DNA of 64,000 nucleotides from an uncultured Spirochaetota bacterium (GTDB taxonomy: Bacteria; Spirochaetota; Brevinematia; Brevinematales; JAOACQ01), in NCBI GenBank assembly GCA_963835575.1, contig CAWIGG010000004.1, positions 736,001 to 800,000 on the forward strand. The letters run 5' to 3'. Within the stretch, counting starts at the first letter, position 1. Each line of letters starts with the position of its first letter. The notes under the pieces are model-generated. The model saw only the letters and a program-made list of their open reading frames with translations. It searched no databases and had not been told where the DNA came from. The position numbers were made by a program, and so were the translations under genes. Shown here in pieces: positions 1,414 to 11,584 of the stretch.

Positions 1414-3516
1414 ATGGAACAGCTTGTGAAGGATTTGGTCCAATCAAAGAAATCAATCAATCAAAGCGCTTTCGTTAAAAAGAGAGACGGAAGGATCACT
1501 GATTTTGACGCGTCCAAGATAGCATCCGCTGTTAATAAGGCTTTCGTGGCGACAGGTGAGGGCAATTATAATCAGGCCTGGGAAATCACGGCCATGATAG
1601 TCAGCAAGCTTGAAGAAAAGGTTGTTGAAATCGAGCATATCCAGGATATTGTTGAAGACACGCTGATGAACATGGGTTTTAGAAAAGCCGCAAAATCCTA
1701 CATTCTTTACCGCGCTAAAAGAAGCGAGCTCCGCAATATCAATAAAACCCTGAATGAAAGTTTAAATATGATCGAAGACTATGTGCATCTGCGGGACTGG
1801 AGGGTCAATGAAAACAGCAACATGAGCTATTCCCTGCAGGGCCTGAACTCGCATGTCTCTTCCACAATTACGGCTAATTACTGGCTGACTAAAATATATA
1901 CTCCCGATATCGGGGAGGCGCACCGCAGCGGCGCCGTTCATATCCATGACCTTGGTTCATTGTCGGCCTATTGCGTGGGCTGGGACCTGGAACAGCTTTT
2001 GATCCAGGGATTCGGCGGCGTCGTCGGCAAGGTGGAAAGCAAGCCAGCCAGGCATTTCCGCGCGGCGCTCGGACAGATCGTTAATTTCTTTTATACCCTC
2101 CAGGGCGAGGCGGCAGGAGCGCAGGCTTTTGCCAATATCGATACGCTCCTGGCGCCCTTTATCCGCCATGACAAGCTCAGTTATAATGAAGTCAAGCAGG
2201 CCATGCAGGAATTCGTCTTTAACCTCAATGTGCCGACGCGGACCGGCTTTCAGACTCCTTTTACAAACCTGACCTTTGACCTTGTCTGCCCTTCTTATTT
2301 CAGGGATAAGGGCGTGATCATCGGAGGGGAAATCCAGGACGAAACCTATTCGGAATTCAAGAAGGAAATGGAATATATCAATCAGGCGTTCGCGGAAGTG
2401 ATGCTGGAAGGCGACGCGAAAAACAGGCCCTTTACATTCCCGATCCCGACATATAATATCACTAAGAAATTTGACTGGGAAAACCCGGCTTATAATAAGA
2501 TCTGGGAAATGACGGCCAAGTACGGGACCCCCTATTTCAGTAATTTTATCAACTCGGATATGAGCGAGGAAGACACCAGAAGCATGTGCTGCCGGCTCAA
2601 ACTGGATAACCGGGAGGTCAGGGCCCAGCTGGACAAGATGGCTCAGAAGCATGGCGAAGAAACCGGGCAGGGAAAAAGAGGCGGGCTTTTTGCCGCGAAC
2701 CCGATGACCGGTTCCATCGGTGTTGTGACGATCAACCTGCCGCGGATAGCTTATTCGGCAAAATCCGAAGAAGAGTTTTTAGAATCCCTCCGCCAGATGA
2801 TGGTCCTCTCAAAAAATTCCCTGGAAATGAAAAGAAAAATGATCGAGGACCTGACTGACAGAGGGCTTTATCCTTATACGCGTATTTATCTTCAGGATAT
2901 TAAAAAAAGAAGCGGAAGATACTGGACAAACCATTTTTCAACAATAGGCATGATCGGTATGAATGAAGCGGTGATGAATTTTATTAAAAAGCCTTATCAT
3001 ACTGAAGAAGGCAGGAATTTTGGAATAAAGGTCCTGGATTTTATGCTCGAAGTCCTCGAGGGCTTTAAGCGCGAAACGGGGCATCTTTATAATCTTGAAG
3101 CCTCCCCGGCTGAAGGCGCGAGCTTCCGCCTGGCAAAGGCGGACAAAAAGAGTTTTCCGGAAATCATTTCTTCCGGTACGCAGGAAGCGCCTTATTATAC
3201 CAATTCCGTCCATCTGCCTGTCAACGCCACGGATGACATTTTTGAGCTTCTTGACCATCAGGACCCTCTTCAGGCTAAATTTACGGGAGGGACGGTCATC
3301 CATATCTTCCTGGGAGAAAAAGTGAAGAACCCGGCAGCTATCGCCGGTATGGTCAAGACTGTGGCGAGCCAGTATCATCTGCCTTATTTTTCAATAACGC
3401 CGACATTTTCCATTTGCCCTGTTCATGGCTACATAAACGGCGAACAATGGATCTGCCCGCTGCCGCATACGGATGAAGAATTGAAAAAATACGGGAAATA
3501 TATTGAAAGTATATAA
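1414..3516 (+). CDS. nrdD: Anaerobic (class III) ribonucleoside-triphosphate reductase, large subunit lacking the glycyl-radical C-terminus
   Basis: N-terminal ATP cone (KKRDGR..FDASKI), HIHDL, YCVGW, RSMCCRL finger loop, PAEG, YYTNS, SITPTFSICPVHGY. Confidence 0.95.
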   Translation: MEQLVKDLVQSKKSINQSAFVKKRDGRITDFDASKIASAVNKAFVATGEGNYNQAWEITAMIVSKLEEKVVEIEHIQDIVEDTLMNMGFRKAAKSYILYRAKRSELRNINKTLNESLNMIEDYVHLRDWRVNENSNMSYSLQGLNSHVSSTITANYWLTKIYTPDIGEAHRSGAVHIHDLGSLSAYCVGWDLEQLLIQGFGGVVGKVESKPARHFRAALGQIVNFFYTLQGEAAGAQAFANIDTLLAPFIRHDKLSYNEVKQAMQEFVFNLNVPTRTGFQTPFTNLTFDLVCPSYFRDKGVIIGGEIQDETYSEFKKEMEYINQAFAEVMLEGDAKNRPFTFPIPTYNITKKFDWENPAYNKIWEMTAKYGTPYFSNFINSDMSEEDTRSMCCRLKLDNREVRAQLDKMAQKHGEETGQGKRGGLFAANPMTGSIGVVTINLPRIAYSAKSEEEFLESLRQMMVLSKNSLEMKRKMIEDLTDRGLYPYTRIYLQDIKKRSGRYWTNHFSTIGMIGMNEAVMNFIKKPYHTEEGRNFGIKVLDFMLEVLEGFKRETGHLYNLEASPAEGASFRLAKADKKSFPEIISSGTQEAPYYTNSVHLPVNATDDIFELLDHQDPLQAKFTGGTVIHIFLGEKVKNPAAIAGMVKTVASQYHLPYFSITPTFSICPVHGYINGEQWICPLPHTDEELKKYGKYIESI

Positions 3517-3547
3517 TTTTACCGATGATTTGAGGGAGGGGTTTTTT

Positions 3548-3700
3548 ATGGAACAGAATGAAAATAAGCGTCTGGTGATTCCGACGGAAGTTTATTCCAG
3601 GATTGTGGGATATTACCGGCCGGTCCAGCATTGGAATGTGGGGAAACAGCAGGAATTTTCCGAACGGAATACTTATGAGGAAAAACTGATCGTTGAATAA
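3548..3700 (+). CDS. Stand-alone NrdD glycyl-radical domain (50 aa)
   Basis: MEQNENKRLVIPTEVYSRIVGYYRPVQHWNVGKQQEF carries the RxxGY glycyl-radical motif; own RBS GGGAGGGG at 3534-3541. Confidence 0.9.
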   Translation: MEQNENKRLVIPTEVYSRIVGYYRPVQHWNVGKQQEFSERNTYEEKLIVE

Positions 3701-3716
3701 TTGATGATATTAACCG

Positions 3717-4313
3717 ATGTTCAGGGGAATTCAGAAGACTTCGCTGATCGATTATCCTCCGTATATATCTTCGACTTTATTTACCGGCGGATGCAATTTC
3801 AGGTGTCCATGGTGCCATAACTGGGATCTGGTATTGCCTGAGCTTTATGAGAAATTACCGGTAATCAAAGAAGATGAAGTTAAAGACTATCTTGTTTCAA
3901 AAAAAGGCAAAATCCAGGGCGTCTGTGTGACAGGTGGGGAGCCGACCCTCTGGGGAGAAAGGCTGGCCGGTTTTTTTGACTGGTGCAGAAAGAACGGCTT
4001 TTTGACCAAGCTGGATACAAACGGTTACCTGCCGGATGTGCTGAAGGGATATATTGATAGGAATCTGCTGGATTTTATCGCCATGGATATTAAAAACACT
4101 TTTCCGAAATATAAAAAAACAACAGGAATGACTGAACTGGATATCAAAAGAATAAAGAAATCCATAAAGATTATTCAGGACAGCGGCGTCAGGCATCAAT
4201 TCCGGACAACCCTTGTCCCAGGGCTTGTTGAAGAAAATGAAATAAAAATAATTGAAGAAGACTTGGAAGAGGAAATATTATTCCAGGAATATCGGAATGA
4301 TAAAAATAGCTGA
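3717..4313 (+). CDS. nrdG: Anaerobic RNR activating enzyme (radical SAM)
   Basis: SLIDYP, GCNFRCPWCHN (CxxxCxxC), TGGEPT, KLDTNG; follows nrdD. Confidence 0.95.
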   Translation: MFRGIQKTSLIDYPPYISSTLFTGGCNFRCPWCHNWDLVLPELYEKLPVIKEDEVKDYLVSKKGKIQGVCVTGGEPTLWGERLAGFFDWCRKNGFLTKLDTNGYLPDVLKGYIDRNLLDFIAMDIKNTFPKYKKTTGMTELDIKRIKKSIKIIQDSGVRHQFRTTLVPGLVEENEIKIIEEDLEEEILFQEYRNDKNS

Positions 4314-4317
4314 TCTT

Positions 4318-4797
4318 TCACTTTAAATTCTTTTCATATTTTATCTGCGTCTGGAGCAGGTAATGTCTCAGGGCGTCATGAAGGGATTTGTCTTTAATTT
4401 CCTTCAGCGACTCATCGATTTTTTTCAGGATTTTCGGATCAATCTTCTTTGTATAGTCCTCATTTTCCGGTAATTCCAGATTTATATCGCCTATTTTAAA
4501 CCGGATTGTGTCAAAAAGGCTGGAAAATTTCGGATTATTGAAATAACGCTGTATGTTTGCCTTCATTTCGTCCTTATTCAGGCTGAGTTCCTGGATCCAG
4601 ATGGGGTCGTCTACAAAAACAGTCAATGTTTTATTATAGATATTTGCCGGCAGAGAATGGGACGCTATTCCTCCGCCGATAATGTCGGCCCAGTTTTTAC
4701 GGAGCAGAGCTGTAAAATAAAATTGATCAGGAATGGACTGCCTGATATAATTGCCGATCCCGGACTGAAGAAAATTGAGAGTATTATATTTTCTCAT
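4318..4797 (-). CDS. DUF721/DciA-family protein
   Basis: W..IIG..IA.HS.P....KTLTVFVDDPIWIQEL pattern typical of DUF721. Confidence 0.75.
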   Translation of the reverse strand: MRKYNTLNFLQSGIGNYIRQSIPDQFYFTALLRKNWADIIGGGIASHSLPANIYNKTLTVFVDDPIWIQELSLNKDEMKANIQRYFNNPKFSSLFDTIRFKIGDINLELPENEDYTKKIDPKILKKIDESLKEIKDKSLHDALRHYLLQTQIKYEKNLK

Positions 4798-4922: not shown

Positions 4923-4967
4923 TATAGGGCAGTTTCAAAAACTTTAAGTTTTTGAAACTGCCCTATA
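4923..4967. repeat. Solo perfect palindrome of the GGGCAGTT..AACTGCCC hairpin family
   Basis: 22-bp arms TATAGGGCAGTTTCAAAAACTT / AAGTTTTTGAAACTGCCCTATA around 1 nt; same family as the hairpins at 1223, 1352 and 11550. Confidence 0.85.
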
Positions 4968-4999
4968 TAATATTTACCTTCAGAATGAGGAAAGGAAAA

Positions 5000-7519
5000 A
5001 TGTGGGAAACACTGGAAAGAGAAATACTGCCTTTTGTGGACAAACCCGCCCGGTATATCGGCGGGGAGCAGAATTCGGTTATTAAAGATCATCGCGGAAA
5101 GACTAGCGTCTGTTTGATCTATCCCGATGTGTATGAGATCGGTATTTCCAATATCGGGCTGAAAATCCTGTATCACATTTTAAATACTGAAAAAAACATT
5201 GTCTGCGAGAGGGCTTATGCTCCCTGGCCGGACATGGAAGAGAAGCTGAGGGAAAAGAAACTGCCGCTTTATTCGCTTGAGACAAAAAAGCCTCTTTCCG
5301 GATTCGATATTCTGGGTTTTACATTTCAGTATGAGCTTCTCTACACCAACTTTCTCAATATCCTGGATTTGTCGCAGATTCCGCTTTATGCGAAAGACAG
5401 GGGAGCTGTCCACCCTTTTATTATAGGCGGGGGGCCTGTTTCAGGCAACCTGGAGCCTGTTGCGCCTTTTCTTGACGCAATCTGCATCGGCGATGGGGAA
5501 AGCAGGGTTCTCTGCATCACTAAGGCTGTGACGGCAAGTAAAAAAAAAGGAAAATCAAGGATTGATATCCTCAAAGACCTGTCCCTGATCGATGGGGTTT
5601 ATGTGCCTCTTCTTTATGAGACGAAAGAGGAAAACGGGTTTATCATTCCGGTCGGGCCGAAAGTCAGAAGGTTCAGCGAACCCGAATTATCGGATAAGGC
5701 TTTTACCACGGCCCAAATCCTGCCGAACCTGCAGGCGGTCCAGGACAGGGCCGTCGTGGAGGTGGCGAGAGGATGCACGAGGGGCTGCCGCTTCTGCCAG
5801 GCCGGGATGCTGTACAGGCCCTTAAGGGAAAGAAGCGTTTCTTCAATATTAAAACTGACGCGGGAAATTATTAATAATACCGGATACCGCGAACTGTCGC
5901 TGATATCCCTTTCCATCAGCGATTACTCGGATTTGAATACATTGATCGAGGCTCTGGACAAACAGCTTTCCCCCCATGGGGTCTCTTTTTCCCTCCCGAG
6001 CCTGAGGATTGATTCTTTCAATCTGGAACTGGCCCAAAAGGTGAAGGAAATCAGGAAAAGCGGCCTGACTTTCGCTGTTGAAGGCGGGACCCAGATTCTG
6101 AGGGACGCCATCAATAAAAACGTTTCCGAGGATGAGCTGATAAAGGTCATCCAGATAGCGAAGAATCTTGGGTGGAGGAGCGTGAAGCTCTATTTTATGA
6201 TCGGGCTCTGTTCCATAGAAAAAGGCGCGGAAATTGAAGGCATTGCCCGGCTCGCTGAAAAAATAGATTCACTTGTGAAAGGAATTAAATTTACAATCAG
6301 CATTGCCCTGTTTATTCCGAAGGCGCACACACCTTTCCAGTGGAATGCTCAGATGAGAATGGAAGACGCCTCGGATGATTTTCATAATCTGATCAGAACA
6401 TTAAGATCAAAAAGAAATATCAATATCCGCTTTCATGAACCGGATATGAGCCATCTGGAGGGGATCTTTTCAAGAGGCGATAGAAGATTGGCGAAAGCCG
6501 TTGAGCTTGCTTTTCAAAAGGGCGCCAGGTTTGACGGATGGAGCGATCATTTTAATTACGGGAAATGGAAGGAAGCTTTTGAGGAAGCGGGGATCAATCC
6601 GGGTTTTTATCTTCAGGCAAAGGATCCCCAGAAATTATTGCCCTGGGAGCATATAGATTCCGGAATTACGAAAAAGTATTTATTAAAGGAAAGGGAAAAG
6701 TCCCTTCAGAATAAAACTACCGGAGACTGTCGTGACGCCTGCCATGATTTCTGCGGCAGCTGCGACTTCAGGAATATAAAGCCCAGGCCGGCTAAAAAAA
6801 GGGCGGGGGAAAAGATTAAGCTTGATAAAGGCTTTTTAAATAAAGTATTGATCGGGAATAGTTCCCGTTTTCTCTGCAGGTTTCTTTACAGCAAAACAGG
6901 GCTTATGAAGTACATCGGCCCCATCGATCTGGAGGAAATATTTGTACGGGCTTTCATCCGCGCGAATATTCCGGTGGTTTTCACAAAAGGATATAATCCG
7001 CATATCCGTGTGGAAATGGGCTGGGCGCTTCCCATCGGTTTTTCCAGTTTGTATGAAACGGCGGAGATAGAATTGGCGGGAGCAGTGAATGAAGTGAAAT
7101 TATTAAAAAAGCTCAATAAAGAATTGCCTTCCGGCCTGAAATTTATTAGATTTAAGGTGTTGAAAATGCCCGCCGCGAAACTCAGTAAAACCGGCAAGGA
7201 ACATTCAGTACAGTTTTCATTTAATAAAGCGGGGATTGAAGATAAGGTTTCAGAGGTGTTAAATTATCTCGGAGAATTTAAAAAAATCACTTCAAAAAAA
7301 GAAAAGGTGATTAATTTAAAGGAATATTTAACTCAATTTGAAATCAAAGAAAGCCGTGCTTATGTGACCTTTATACAGAAGGAAGGCGGGGCCAGGATTC
7401 AGGATTTCATTACAGCTTTAACGGGCTATGATACTCGCCGGGCCCTCATTCTGGATCCATGTGTGAAAAAGCGCTTTCTGATGGAAAATGGAAAACAAGT
7501 CCTGCTTTTTGATTTATAA
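5000..7519 (+). CDS. B12-binding-domain radical SAM protein (TIGR03960-like) fused to radical SAM-linked domain (TIGR03936-like)
   Basis: KPARYIGGE, YPDVYEIGISN, RGCTRGCRFCQAG; C-terminal FTKGYNPH..ALPIG; ATG 5000 after AGGAAAGG. Confidence 0.88.
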   Translation: MWETLEREILPFVDKPARYIGGEQNSVIKDHRGKTSVCLIYPDVYEIGISNIGLKILYHILNTEKNIVCERAYAPWPDMEEKLREKKLPLYSLETKKPLSGFDILGFTFQYELLYTNFLNILDLSQIPLYAKDRGAVHPFIIGGGPVSGNLEPVAPFLDAICIGDGESRVLCITKAVTASKKKGKSRIDILKDLSLIDGVYVPLLYETKEENGFIIPVGPKVRRFSEPELSDKAFTTAQILPNLQAVQDRAVVEVARGCTRGCRFCQAGMLYRPLRERSVSSILKLTREIINNTGYRELSLISLSISDYSDLNTLIEALDKQLSPHGVSFSLPSLRIDSFNLELAQKVKEIRKSGLTFAVEGGTQILRDAINKNVSEDELIKVIQIAKNLGWRSVKLYFMIGLCSIEKGAEIEGIARLAEKIDSLVKGIKFTISIALFIPKAHTPFQWNAQMRMEDASDDFHNLIRTLRSKRNINIRFHEPDMSHLEGIFSRGDRRLAKAVELAFQKGARFDGWSDHFNYGKWKEAFEEAGINPGFYLQAKDPQKLLPWEHIDSGITKKYLLKEREKSLQNKTTGDCRDACHDFCGSCDFRNIKPRPAKKRAGEKIKLDKGFLNKVLIGNSSRFLCRFLYSKTGLMKYIGPIDLEEIFVRAFIRANIPVVFTKGYNPHIRVEMGWALPIGFSSLYETAEIELAGAVNEVKLLKKLNKELPSGLKFIRFKVLKMPAAKLSKTGKEHSVQFSFNKAGIEDKVSEVLNYLGEFKKITSKKEKVINLKEYLTQFEIKESRAYVTFIQKEGGARIQDFITALTGYDTRRALILDPCVKKRFLMENGKQVLLFDL

Positions 7520-11397: not shown

Positions 11398-11584
11398 AGG
11401 ACAAATCCAAAAACAAAATGTTTTTGGATTTGTCCCGATTGGAATAAACTTTTTGGGAATACAAAAGATGCTGTTCCTCACCATTTTGTCAGGGCAGCTC
11501 CAGTGGAACTCAGAAAATGGTGAGGGACTGCATGATTCGGAACAACATCGGCAGTTCCAAAAAATATGAGTTTTTAGAACTGCC
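11398..11584 (+). repeat. Structured intergenic repeat, copy B (apical module replaced)
   Basis: 5' hairpin GGACAAATCCAAAAAC..GTTTTTGGATTTGTCC (11399-11435); 3' hairpin 11550-11584 nearly identical to 1352-1385; central CCTCACCATTTT..AAAATGGTGAGG; TTAG on both sides. Confidence 0.8.

Follow-up and report, generated by a model that had tools for sequence, protein, structure and literature searches.

The DNA analysed here (the window) is a stretch of 64,000 nucleotides of contig CAWIGG010000004.1 (assembly GCA_963835575.1) from an uncultured Spirochaetota bacterium, and its forward strand carries a locus for class III ribonucleotide reductase (RNR) in which nrdD (1414-3516) is followed by an open reading frame (ORF) of 50 codons (3548-3700) and then by nrdG (3717-4313). 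The nrdD ORF comprises 700 codons and ends in ...TPTFSICPVHGYINGEQWICPLPHTDEELKKYGKYIESI-TAA (stop codon at 3514-3516); its product consists of an ATP cone, a catalytic barrel, an MCCR finger loop, a metal site and a tail, and it contains no RxxGY motif. The small ORF starts at the ATG at 3548, 31 nt beyond the nrdD stop and in a different frame, contains ...TEVYSRIVGYYRPVQHWNVGKQQEF... and is a separate gene for the part of NrdD that comprises the glycyl-radical loop and the C-terminal tail. The GGA codon of Gly21 within YSRIVGY (3608-3610) specifies the likely radical glycine, as judged by profile homology to the NrdD radical loop, and this residue was invariant in all 25 aligned small chains. 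The third gene encodes an NrdG2-type radical-SAM activase of 198 aa (TIGR02495, 166.6 bits; cut-off 131.15). The initial annotation had placed the NrdD stop at 3516 and, ahead of nrdG, a small ORF in another frame with its own ribosome-binding site, and the sequence agrees with it throughout.

A Shine-Dalgarno (SD) site lies upstream of nrdD (GGGAGGGG, 1399-1406, + strand), with a duplex energy of −11.2 kcal/mol against the 3′ end of the genome's own 16S rRNA, a value reached by 11% of 174 background ORFs. The site of the small gene (GAGGGAGGGG, 3532-3541, + strand) gave −11.9 kcal/mol, which was reached by 4% of the same background, and purine-rich sites precede most start codons among the relatives of the small gene. 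The SD of nrdG, in the window as well as in relatives, is nearly absent (mean −2.2 kcal/mol), and nrdG frequently abuts or overlaps the small gene; this arrangement suggests that nrdG is translationally coupled to the small gene, whose SD was stronger than that of nrdG in 17 of 17 loci.

The large chain scored 991.7 bits against NF006126/PRK08270 (cut-off 548) and 506 bits against TIGR02487 (cut-off 326.35), and the NrdD profile PF13597 divided between the two proteins without overlap: the large protein covered profile positions 1-527 with 596.6 bits, and the small one covered 533-562 with 38.8 bits (cut-off 26.2). An ATP-cone domain was detected at residues 20-105 (1471-1728; PF03477, 74.4 bits). 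The double-cysteine motif M391-C392-C393-R394 (2584-2595), the likely thiyl-radical site, was unchanged in all 28 aligned large chains of the split type and aligns with SCCR of the Thermotoga maritima structure 4coi; C187 and E562, also aligned to T. maritima motifs, were invariant in the same 28 rows, and by this alignment E562 is probably the catalytic glutamate. The NxN flap residues (N134, N136), HxHD and the YC pair at 186-187 were present as well. Sequence matches to the structures 8p23, 4coi and 4u3e (E 6e-38 to 1.5e-37), together with a Foldseek search in which the model of a fused relative of 76% identity ranked class III RNR chains first (E 2.4e-32), indicate that the large chain would adopt the ten-stranded class III RNR barrel. 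NrdD2 enzymes are thioredoxin-dependent, and the CC motif, C187 and E562 appear to point to this chemistry here; a thioredoxin-like WCGPC ORF is present in the source genome. In the published classification, MCCR marks group NrdDh4, and a third cysteine together with a glutamate defines NrdD2 (PMC4493059).

The locus departs from the canonical single-chain NrdD at two points: the loop sits on a separate ORF, and the metal site reads CxxH..CxxxH where a second CxxC pair is usual, as the initial annotation had also noted. This likely metal (Zn) site, C668-H671...C681-H685 (3415-3468), has the family's normal CxxH as its first pair by consensus, and the usual last Cys is replaced by His (CPLPH instead of CxxC); C668, H671 and C681 were invariant in alignment A1, and the motif would bind the metal within the large chain. 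Since the glycyl-radical domain of Prevotella copri NrdD is defined as Zn site, Gly loop and tail (PMC11226230), the small gene is the Gly-loop-plus-tail half of that domain and the Zn site remains on the large chain. The proposal that the entire domain had become a 50-aa gene therefore holds for the loop and tail, and not for the Zn-site half. The large chain is closed by a lineage-specific, clade-conserved tail (residues 686-700; 3469-3513) with a helix and then a likely strand, which is predicted to clasp the small chain.

Among 194 NrdD rows (the set left after removal of 18 unclassifiable cluster representatives and 9 duplicates), CxxxH occurred in 36 rows without a Gly loop, 14 of them judged from the protein end alone, and in 3 rows with a loop, so that the suggested association of such a tail with a separate small ORF was borne out; CxxC occurred in 96 fused and 49 unfused rows. 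The His-closed site thus accompanies the split in the window's group, yet the split does not require His: other split forms retain CxxC, and the change to CxxxH belongs to the window's lineage.

We considered whether the large chain might be active by itself, with Gly694 of the tail (KKYGKY) as the radical site and the small gene a vestige or regulator. A YG/FG pair is conserved in the tail of the clade, and phmmer pairs Gly694 with T. maritima Gly621, at the frayed edge of its alignment. However, the tail has no RxxG context and is missing the remainder of the Pfam radical-loop segment, which is complete in the small gene, Gly694 comes after a predicted helix, and fused relatives retain both the tail and the true loop; we regard this explanation as highly implausible. 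Membership of the small peptide in the GrcA/YfiD family was also considered and rejected, as the peptide matched PF13597 only and gave no match to PF01228. PF01228 had no match in the source genome (a control matched in 3 of 14), and the small peptide had no match among Protein Data Bank sequences and none in PHROG at E 1e-4.

To establish how far the arrangement is conserved, 60 relatives were searched, of which 34 carried an NrdD, 23 of these from the same order. The split was found in 21 of the 23 same-order relatives, including 4/4 genomes of the same genus and 10/11 of the same family; the exceptions in the order were G010 and G016, the latter with a more distant NrdD type. Among named database records, the nearest relatives were from Brevinematales/Spirochaetota (77-88% identity), and all seven of their loci were split, a set that overlaps the 21 of 23. 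Close homologues are therefore not all single-chain, the outcome that had been named as fatal to a natively two-part enzyme, and the latter proposal stands, with the CxxxH tail going along with the split. Although the genomes of the same genus and family share the same break, their junction DNA differs, and in G004, G018, G022 and others translation gave in-frame stops. Across 20 split loci (the window and 19 relatives), the spacer between nrdD and the small gene ranged from −8 to 1205 nt (≤48 nt in 17), and the frame offset was 0, 1 and 2 in 6, 9 and 5 loci, respectively. The 35-codon core of the small gene, compared with 20 relatives, had pN/pS values of 0.02-0.23 (median 0.09); the gene is under purifying selection. 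An insertion sequence (IS) transposase separates the two genes in G006, the small gene and nrdG lie about 600 kb from nrdD on the same single contig in G057, and the small gene is located after nrdG in a Synergistales locus (L018). The window itself has no intervening mobile element at the break, only the 31-nt spacer, so it does not resemble a split made by an intron, intein or homing endonuclease. An exact 26-mer spanning the nrdD stop had no match in the metagenome collection.

These data bear on two simple explanations of the gap. The first, an assembly error or a decaying pseudogene with another reductase doing the work, could draw on the class II NrdJ encoded in the source genome (G000; L024:1252-3684, C2; TIGR02504 above cut-off), which is the only PF02867 match there; it is very improbable in view of the recurrence of the same break with differing junction DNA, the purifying selection on the small gene and the invariant catalytic motifs of the large chains. 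The second, that both ORFs yield one polypeptide by programmed frameshifting, readthrough or RNA splicing, fits the six loci in which only one stop codon separates two ORFs that share a frame, but it is scarcely compatible with the use of all three frame offsets, the range of spacers, the small gene's own SD, or the IS-separated, displaced and distant arrangements, and we give it as little credence as the first. Taken together, the conserved split, the varied spacers and frames, the pN/pS values and the IS and distant arrangements make assembly error, decay and recoding all very unlikely. The reality of the junction is settled by these comparative data, that is, by conservation across relatives rather than by the sample's own reads. 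The source assembly (4.39 Mb in 7 contigs, 94% complete) contained no second nrdD or radical-loop gene by tblastn. Two conserved genes, next to an activase gene, jointly hold all NrdD motifs, and we conclude that a class III RNR is very probably formed here from two genes, one for a catalytic chain of 700 residues and the other for a radical peptide of 50.

We then examined whether the two chains are predicted to assemble, using large-chain residues 105-700, the peptide and Zn as input together with three controls. The predicted complex scored 0.82, compared with 0.01 for the best control; the runs agreed in at least 86% of contacts, and the partner had a pLDDT of at least 74. The mark for this score was reached by 116 of 157 solved pairs and 2 of 215 mismatched pairs, counts that hold only roughly for the present job. 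The complex prediction proposed with the initial annotation thus gave a passing score, although the two halves of a split gene tend to score well because they resemble solved single-chain NrdD structures. The most confident contacts joined peptide residues 11-16 to large-chain residues 664-668 and 677-681, around the metal site. The predicted interface also included residues 689-690 and 693-699 of the tail, contacts that the predictor is less likely to have taken from solved structures; folded without the partner, the tail formed a helix at 687-693 and fell below pLDDT 50 at 694-700, and in the model of the fused relative residues 694-700 formed a strand. Contacts at 565-568 included E567, which aligns to P. 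copri Glu581, the partner of the tyrosine following the radical glycine (PMC11226230). C392 and C393 were not among the confidently predicted contacts of the peptide.

To explore the breadth of the split form, 201 spirochaete genomes at least 90% complete were surveyed with a profile of the small chain, and 99 matched; this profile is biased towards the subfamily of the window and failed, for instance, to detect the NrdD of G016, so that the survey figure is not a census. The loop was found only on frames of 50-235 aa in 85 of the 99 (G000 among them) and long NrdD frames were found in 14, eight of which were read out; among spirochaete NrdDs detected in this way, the split form is thus commoner than the fused one. 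Two or more short copies were present in 14 of the 85 split-type genomes. Beyond the spirochaetes, splits confirmed at the DNA level occur in loci of Nanoarchaeota/Woesearchaeota and of Synergistales, and in a Peribacteria locus the loop is encoded by an ORF of its own. A profile search returned at least 7992 proteins of 21-111 aa, some of which will be fragments at contig edges; a member of 66 aa is named there from Thermospira aquatica, a cultured thermophile. In addition, 62 of 129 classifiable NrdD cluster representatives (150 in total) end past the metal site without a Gly motif; these are known without DNA context and some may be truncated, and they were counted apart from the DNA-confirmed cases. 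Many of the nearest representatives (within P0040-P0189) are 800-1900 aa long and match in 2-4 stretches, which may reflect inteins.

Unrooted trees of the 194 rows were built from 516 core columns, with the ATP cone, metal site and loop excluded. The window fell in a clade of 21 rows with support 100, in which every member is split save G010. A single clade for all DNA-confirmed split forms (39 rows) was rejected with p-AU 1.6e-72, and placement of G010 outside its split neighbours with p-AU 0.001, both groups having been named after the tree was seen; the DNA-confirmed rows of the tree show seven changes between the split and fused states. In G010 (L029:3245-3265), the linker of the fused nrdD still contains a purine-rich SD together with an ATG in frame, at the position occupied in its sisters by a stop, an SD and an ATG, and from this sequence it may make both the full chain and a free peptide. 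Family f29 (five genomes, L151-L155) has a fused NrdD that keeps the CxxxH tail and bears acidic low-complexity linkers of variable length, with 63-138 residues from the TPTF motif to EVY compared with 27 in ordinary NrdD, which we read as a tethered radical peptide; its fused rows nest between split rows (support 99/96 and 96/86). The row of G040, which is partial (32% of its columns are filled), nests within loop-less CxxxH rows. At least three lineages have thus apparently re-fused, the direction being set by parsimony with re-fusion as the simpler reading, and the existence of such apparent re-fusions indicates that the two pieces belong to one enzyme.

A second spirochaete split type (L031, L032, L043/L060, L165) keeps CxxC and has charged, helical-looking extensions on both chains that, read by eye, could possibly form a coiled coil. 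In L031 and L165 the small chain extends further, and the additional region has a CxxCP motif and may be a redoxin domain. In G056 (L035, L059:1952-2122) the large chain is without the fourth metal ligand and a remote small gene starts MSKCGKETEVY, whose Cys could complete the metal site in trans; several viral peptides start similarly.

Stand-alone copies of the radical-loop gene were also found beside phage-like or conjugation genes and in viral contigs. Extra copies of family f5 lie beside a DNA methyltransferase and a tail-like gene in G015 and beside a YqaJ recombinase in G019, and three f5 extras with phage-like or conjugation neighbours share the LVMPTEVY start of their hosts. In G019 one such gene (L056:1949-2125) is embedded in a conjugation cluster, between TraC- and TrbI-type genes. 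Among viral contigs, which were searched with Gly-loop patterns, 445 stretches matched, and the best 80 of the 445 were read: 26 were fused, 5 were split with a core nearby, 30 stood alone in the locus, 13 stood alone near an edge and 6 were unclassified, after one row had been reassigned by hand from split to fused. Whole records were then searched for 38 of the 49 that were alone or unclassified, picked for the absence of a nearby core. The loop was present and the barrel absent in all 38, including nine of nine that were at least 90% complete, four of which have direct terminal repeats; any radical-SAM match was found in two of these nine and none in the other seven. The phage-encoded peptide of L069 shows 76% identity over residues 11-47. 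Three records of annotated phages matched, one of them unannotated, one a full-length NrdD, and one ANMV-1, in which a 144-codon ORF is annotated NrdD and no large nrdD was present within the 8 kb read. In six viral contigs (L074, L078, L085, L089, L091, L095) the module is joined to a domain of about 110 aa that is rich in cysteine (CANCLHC...C...C). Because it is kept without a barrel and mostly without a radical-SAM gene, the viral peptide would most likely act in trans on the host enzyme, which it may help or block. These copies point to an unrecognised kind of auxiliary gene.

NrdG abstracts a hydrogen atom from the loop glycine of NrdD, and the radical then passes to the finger-loop cysteine. 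Activation requires the loop to be outside the barrel (PMC12662201), and the backbone is cut by O2 at the glycine that bears the radical (PMC13450708). In a two-chain enzyme, the peptide would likely receive its glycyl radical from NrdG and, as predicted, dock into the large chain, where His685 would complete the metal site and the tail would replace the lost covalent link. With the radical on a peptide that is held non-covalently, oxygen would damage the small chain, at a cost of 50 residues and not 750; the cut peptide could be released and replaced, with a fresh host- or phage-encoded peptide reloading the barrel. Given a two-chain enzyme, such exchange of the peptide is rather probable, and a two-chain enzyme with an exchangeable peptide is, as a joint proposition, modestly favoured. 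The enzyme would then work like NrdD, possibly like one with a built-in GrcA. A wider extension is tentative and falls somewhat short of probable: that class III RNR is widely two-chain, with its radical on a consumable, exchangeable peptide of about 50 residues, which phages and conjugative elements would bring along by itself so as to recharge or control the barrel of the host, and that the two-chain form arose several times with different docking devices, a His-closed site and clasp tail here and likely coiled coils elsewhere in the spirochaetes.

Several observations weigh against exchange. The best predicted contacts of the peptide precede the cut site at Gly21, and a cleaved N-terminal stub might remain bound and block reloading. 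In the 15 loci that could be compared (5 of the 20 were left out for want of a usable nrdD start), the SD of the small gene was stronger than that of nrdD in 6, weaker in 8 and tied in 1, and the source genome has a single peptide copy, so that there is no sign of surplus peptide. The oxygen-independent NrdJ lowers the need for repair in this genome. Extra short copies were not clearly enriched in split hosts (14/85, against one unconfirmed case in 14), the viral search patterns were blind to copies lacking the Gly-loop motif, and the apparent re-fusions show that the split is dispensable in some lineages. Much of this is also what would be expected of a two-chain enzyme that is a permanent complex, produced by near-neutral fission at a flexible hinge and locked by the tail, in which oxygen kills the whole complex, while copies in phages and additional copies in hosts serve as passengers, dosage boosters or decoys rather than spare parts. 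The repeated switching in both directions, with a single split origin rejected, seven changes of state and apparent re-fusions, agrees with such a complex, as do an SD of the small gene no stronger than that of nrdD and a predicted pairing of peptide residues 11-16 that would survive cleavage; in addition, the domain is mobile even in single-chain NrdD (PMC11226230, PMC12662201). On the other hand, near-complete viral records that hold the peptide with no barrel and mostly no radical-SAM gene suggest action in trans, and the split predominates in the phylum sample. We consider the permanent complex a serious alternative, though not the probable one, and retain the exchangeable peptide as the preferred reading.

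Other features of the locus were noted. Downstream of nrdG lie a DciA-family gene (4318-4797, − strand) and a fused TIGR03960/TIGR03936 radical-SAM gene (4952-7519, + strand), with no RNR link seen. A palindromic repeat of 34-36 nt (GGCAGTT...AACTGCC), resembling repetitive extragenic palindromes, occurs in the window at 1224-1259, 1352-1385, 4928-4962 and 11550-11584; it has 76 matches genome-wide, several of them paired about 126 nt apart, and one pair lies directly upstream of nrdD. An NrdR-box consensus matched the window 3 times where 4.2 matches would be expected, and never close to the operon, and promoter and terminator scans were at chance level only.

No description of a split NrdD or of an NrdD spare part was found in full-text searches aimed at these, which covered main texts and few subscription papers, so that a passing mention may exist elsewhere; the two-gene class III RNR is real and conserved, and apparently undescribed. 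The split RNRs mentioned in the literature covered were the class II pair NrdJa/b, phage genes broken by introns, inteins or endonucleases, and one fragmented phage nrdD (PMC9669993, PMC3653736, PMC4390871, PMC2795772, PMC12288474, bioRxiv 10.1101/2022.04.23.489257). In annotation, the large chains resemble truncated NrdD and the peptides are labelled hypothetical or simply NrdD, some database peptides being already annotated anaerobic ribonucleoside-triphosphate reductase; one large RNR phylogeny excluded sequences below 400 aa (PMC9531940). Whether glycyl-radical enzymes besides pyruvate formate-lyase (PFL) have spare-part proteins is yet to be determined according to a 2026 review (PMC13450708; likewise PMC8683613). 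If exchange is true, the present case would be the first spare-part system outside PFL, built into the architecture of the enzyme. The layout makes the spare-part question directly testable, the peptide being short enough for synthesis, and as a minimal natural NrdG substrate the peptide would be useful for an activase-substrate structure; the PFL activase (PFL-AE) is named as the only activase structure in the same review (PMC13450708).

Compared with known systems, the locus is closest to single-chain NrdD with NrdG (PRK08270/NF006126; NrdDh4 and NrdD2 of PMC4493059), with which it shares the ATP cone, barrel, NxN, HxHD, YC and CC motifs, E562, the metal site, the RxxGY loop and the adjacent NrdG2. 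All solved structures found in our searches are of single-chain NrdD (T. maritima 4COI/4U3E, P. copri 8P23, Streptococcus thermophilus 9D3X and phage T4 1H78), whereas in the window the loop and C-terminal tail form their own 50-aa gene, the cut lies inside the glycyl-radical domain, His serves as the final likely metal ligand and a new helix-strand tail closes the large chain. Split class II RNR (NrdJa/NrdJb) likewise has its C-terminal part as a second chain (PMC9669993). Fragmented phage RNR genes (Aeh1 nrdA-a/b; nrdD split by introns or inteins) also place a catalytic subunit on more than one ORF, but their breaks are mostly due to homing endonucleases, introns or inteins, or are isolated fragmentation as in phiAS4 (PMC3653736), while the break described here lies at a fixed point before the Gly loop, usually with no intervening element, and is conserved across the phylum. 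Two glycyl-radical proteins that serve as spares for PFL, GrcA/YfiD in E. coli and Y06I in phage T4 (PMC8683613, PMC13450708), the latter acting on PFL (PMC8683613), are alike in being small stand-alone carriers of a radical glycine for a barrel enzyme in trans, an action that is predicted here, and in having phage copies. In contrast to them, the window's peptide is the C-terminus of PF13597 and not PF01228, has 50 aa instead of about 127, and is the only radical loop of its enzyme rather than a back-up to a full-length chain.

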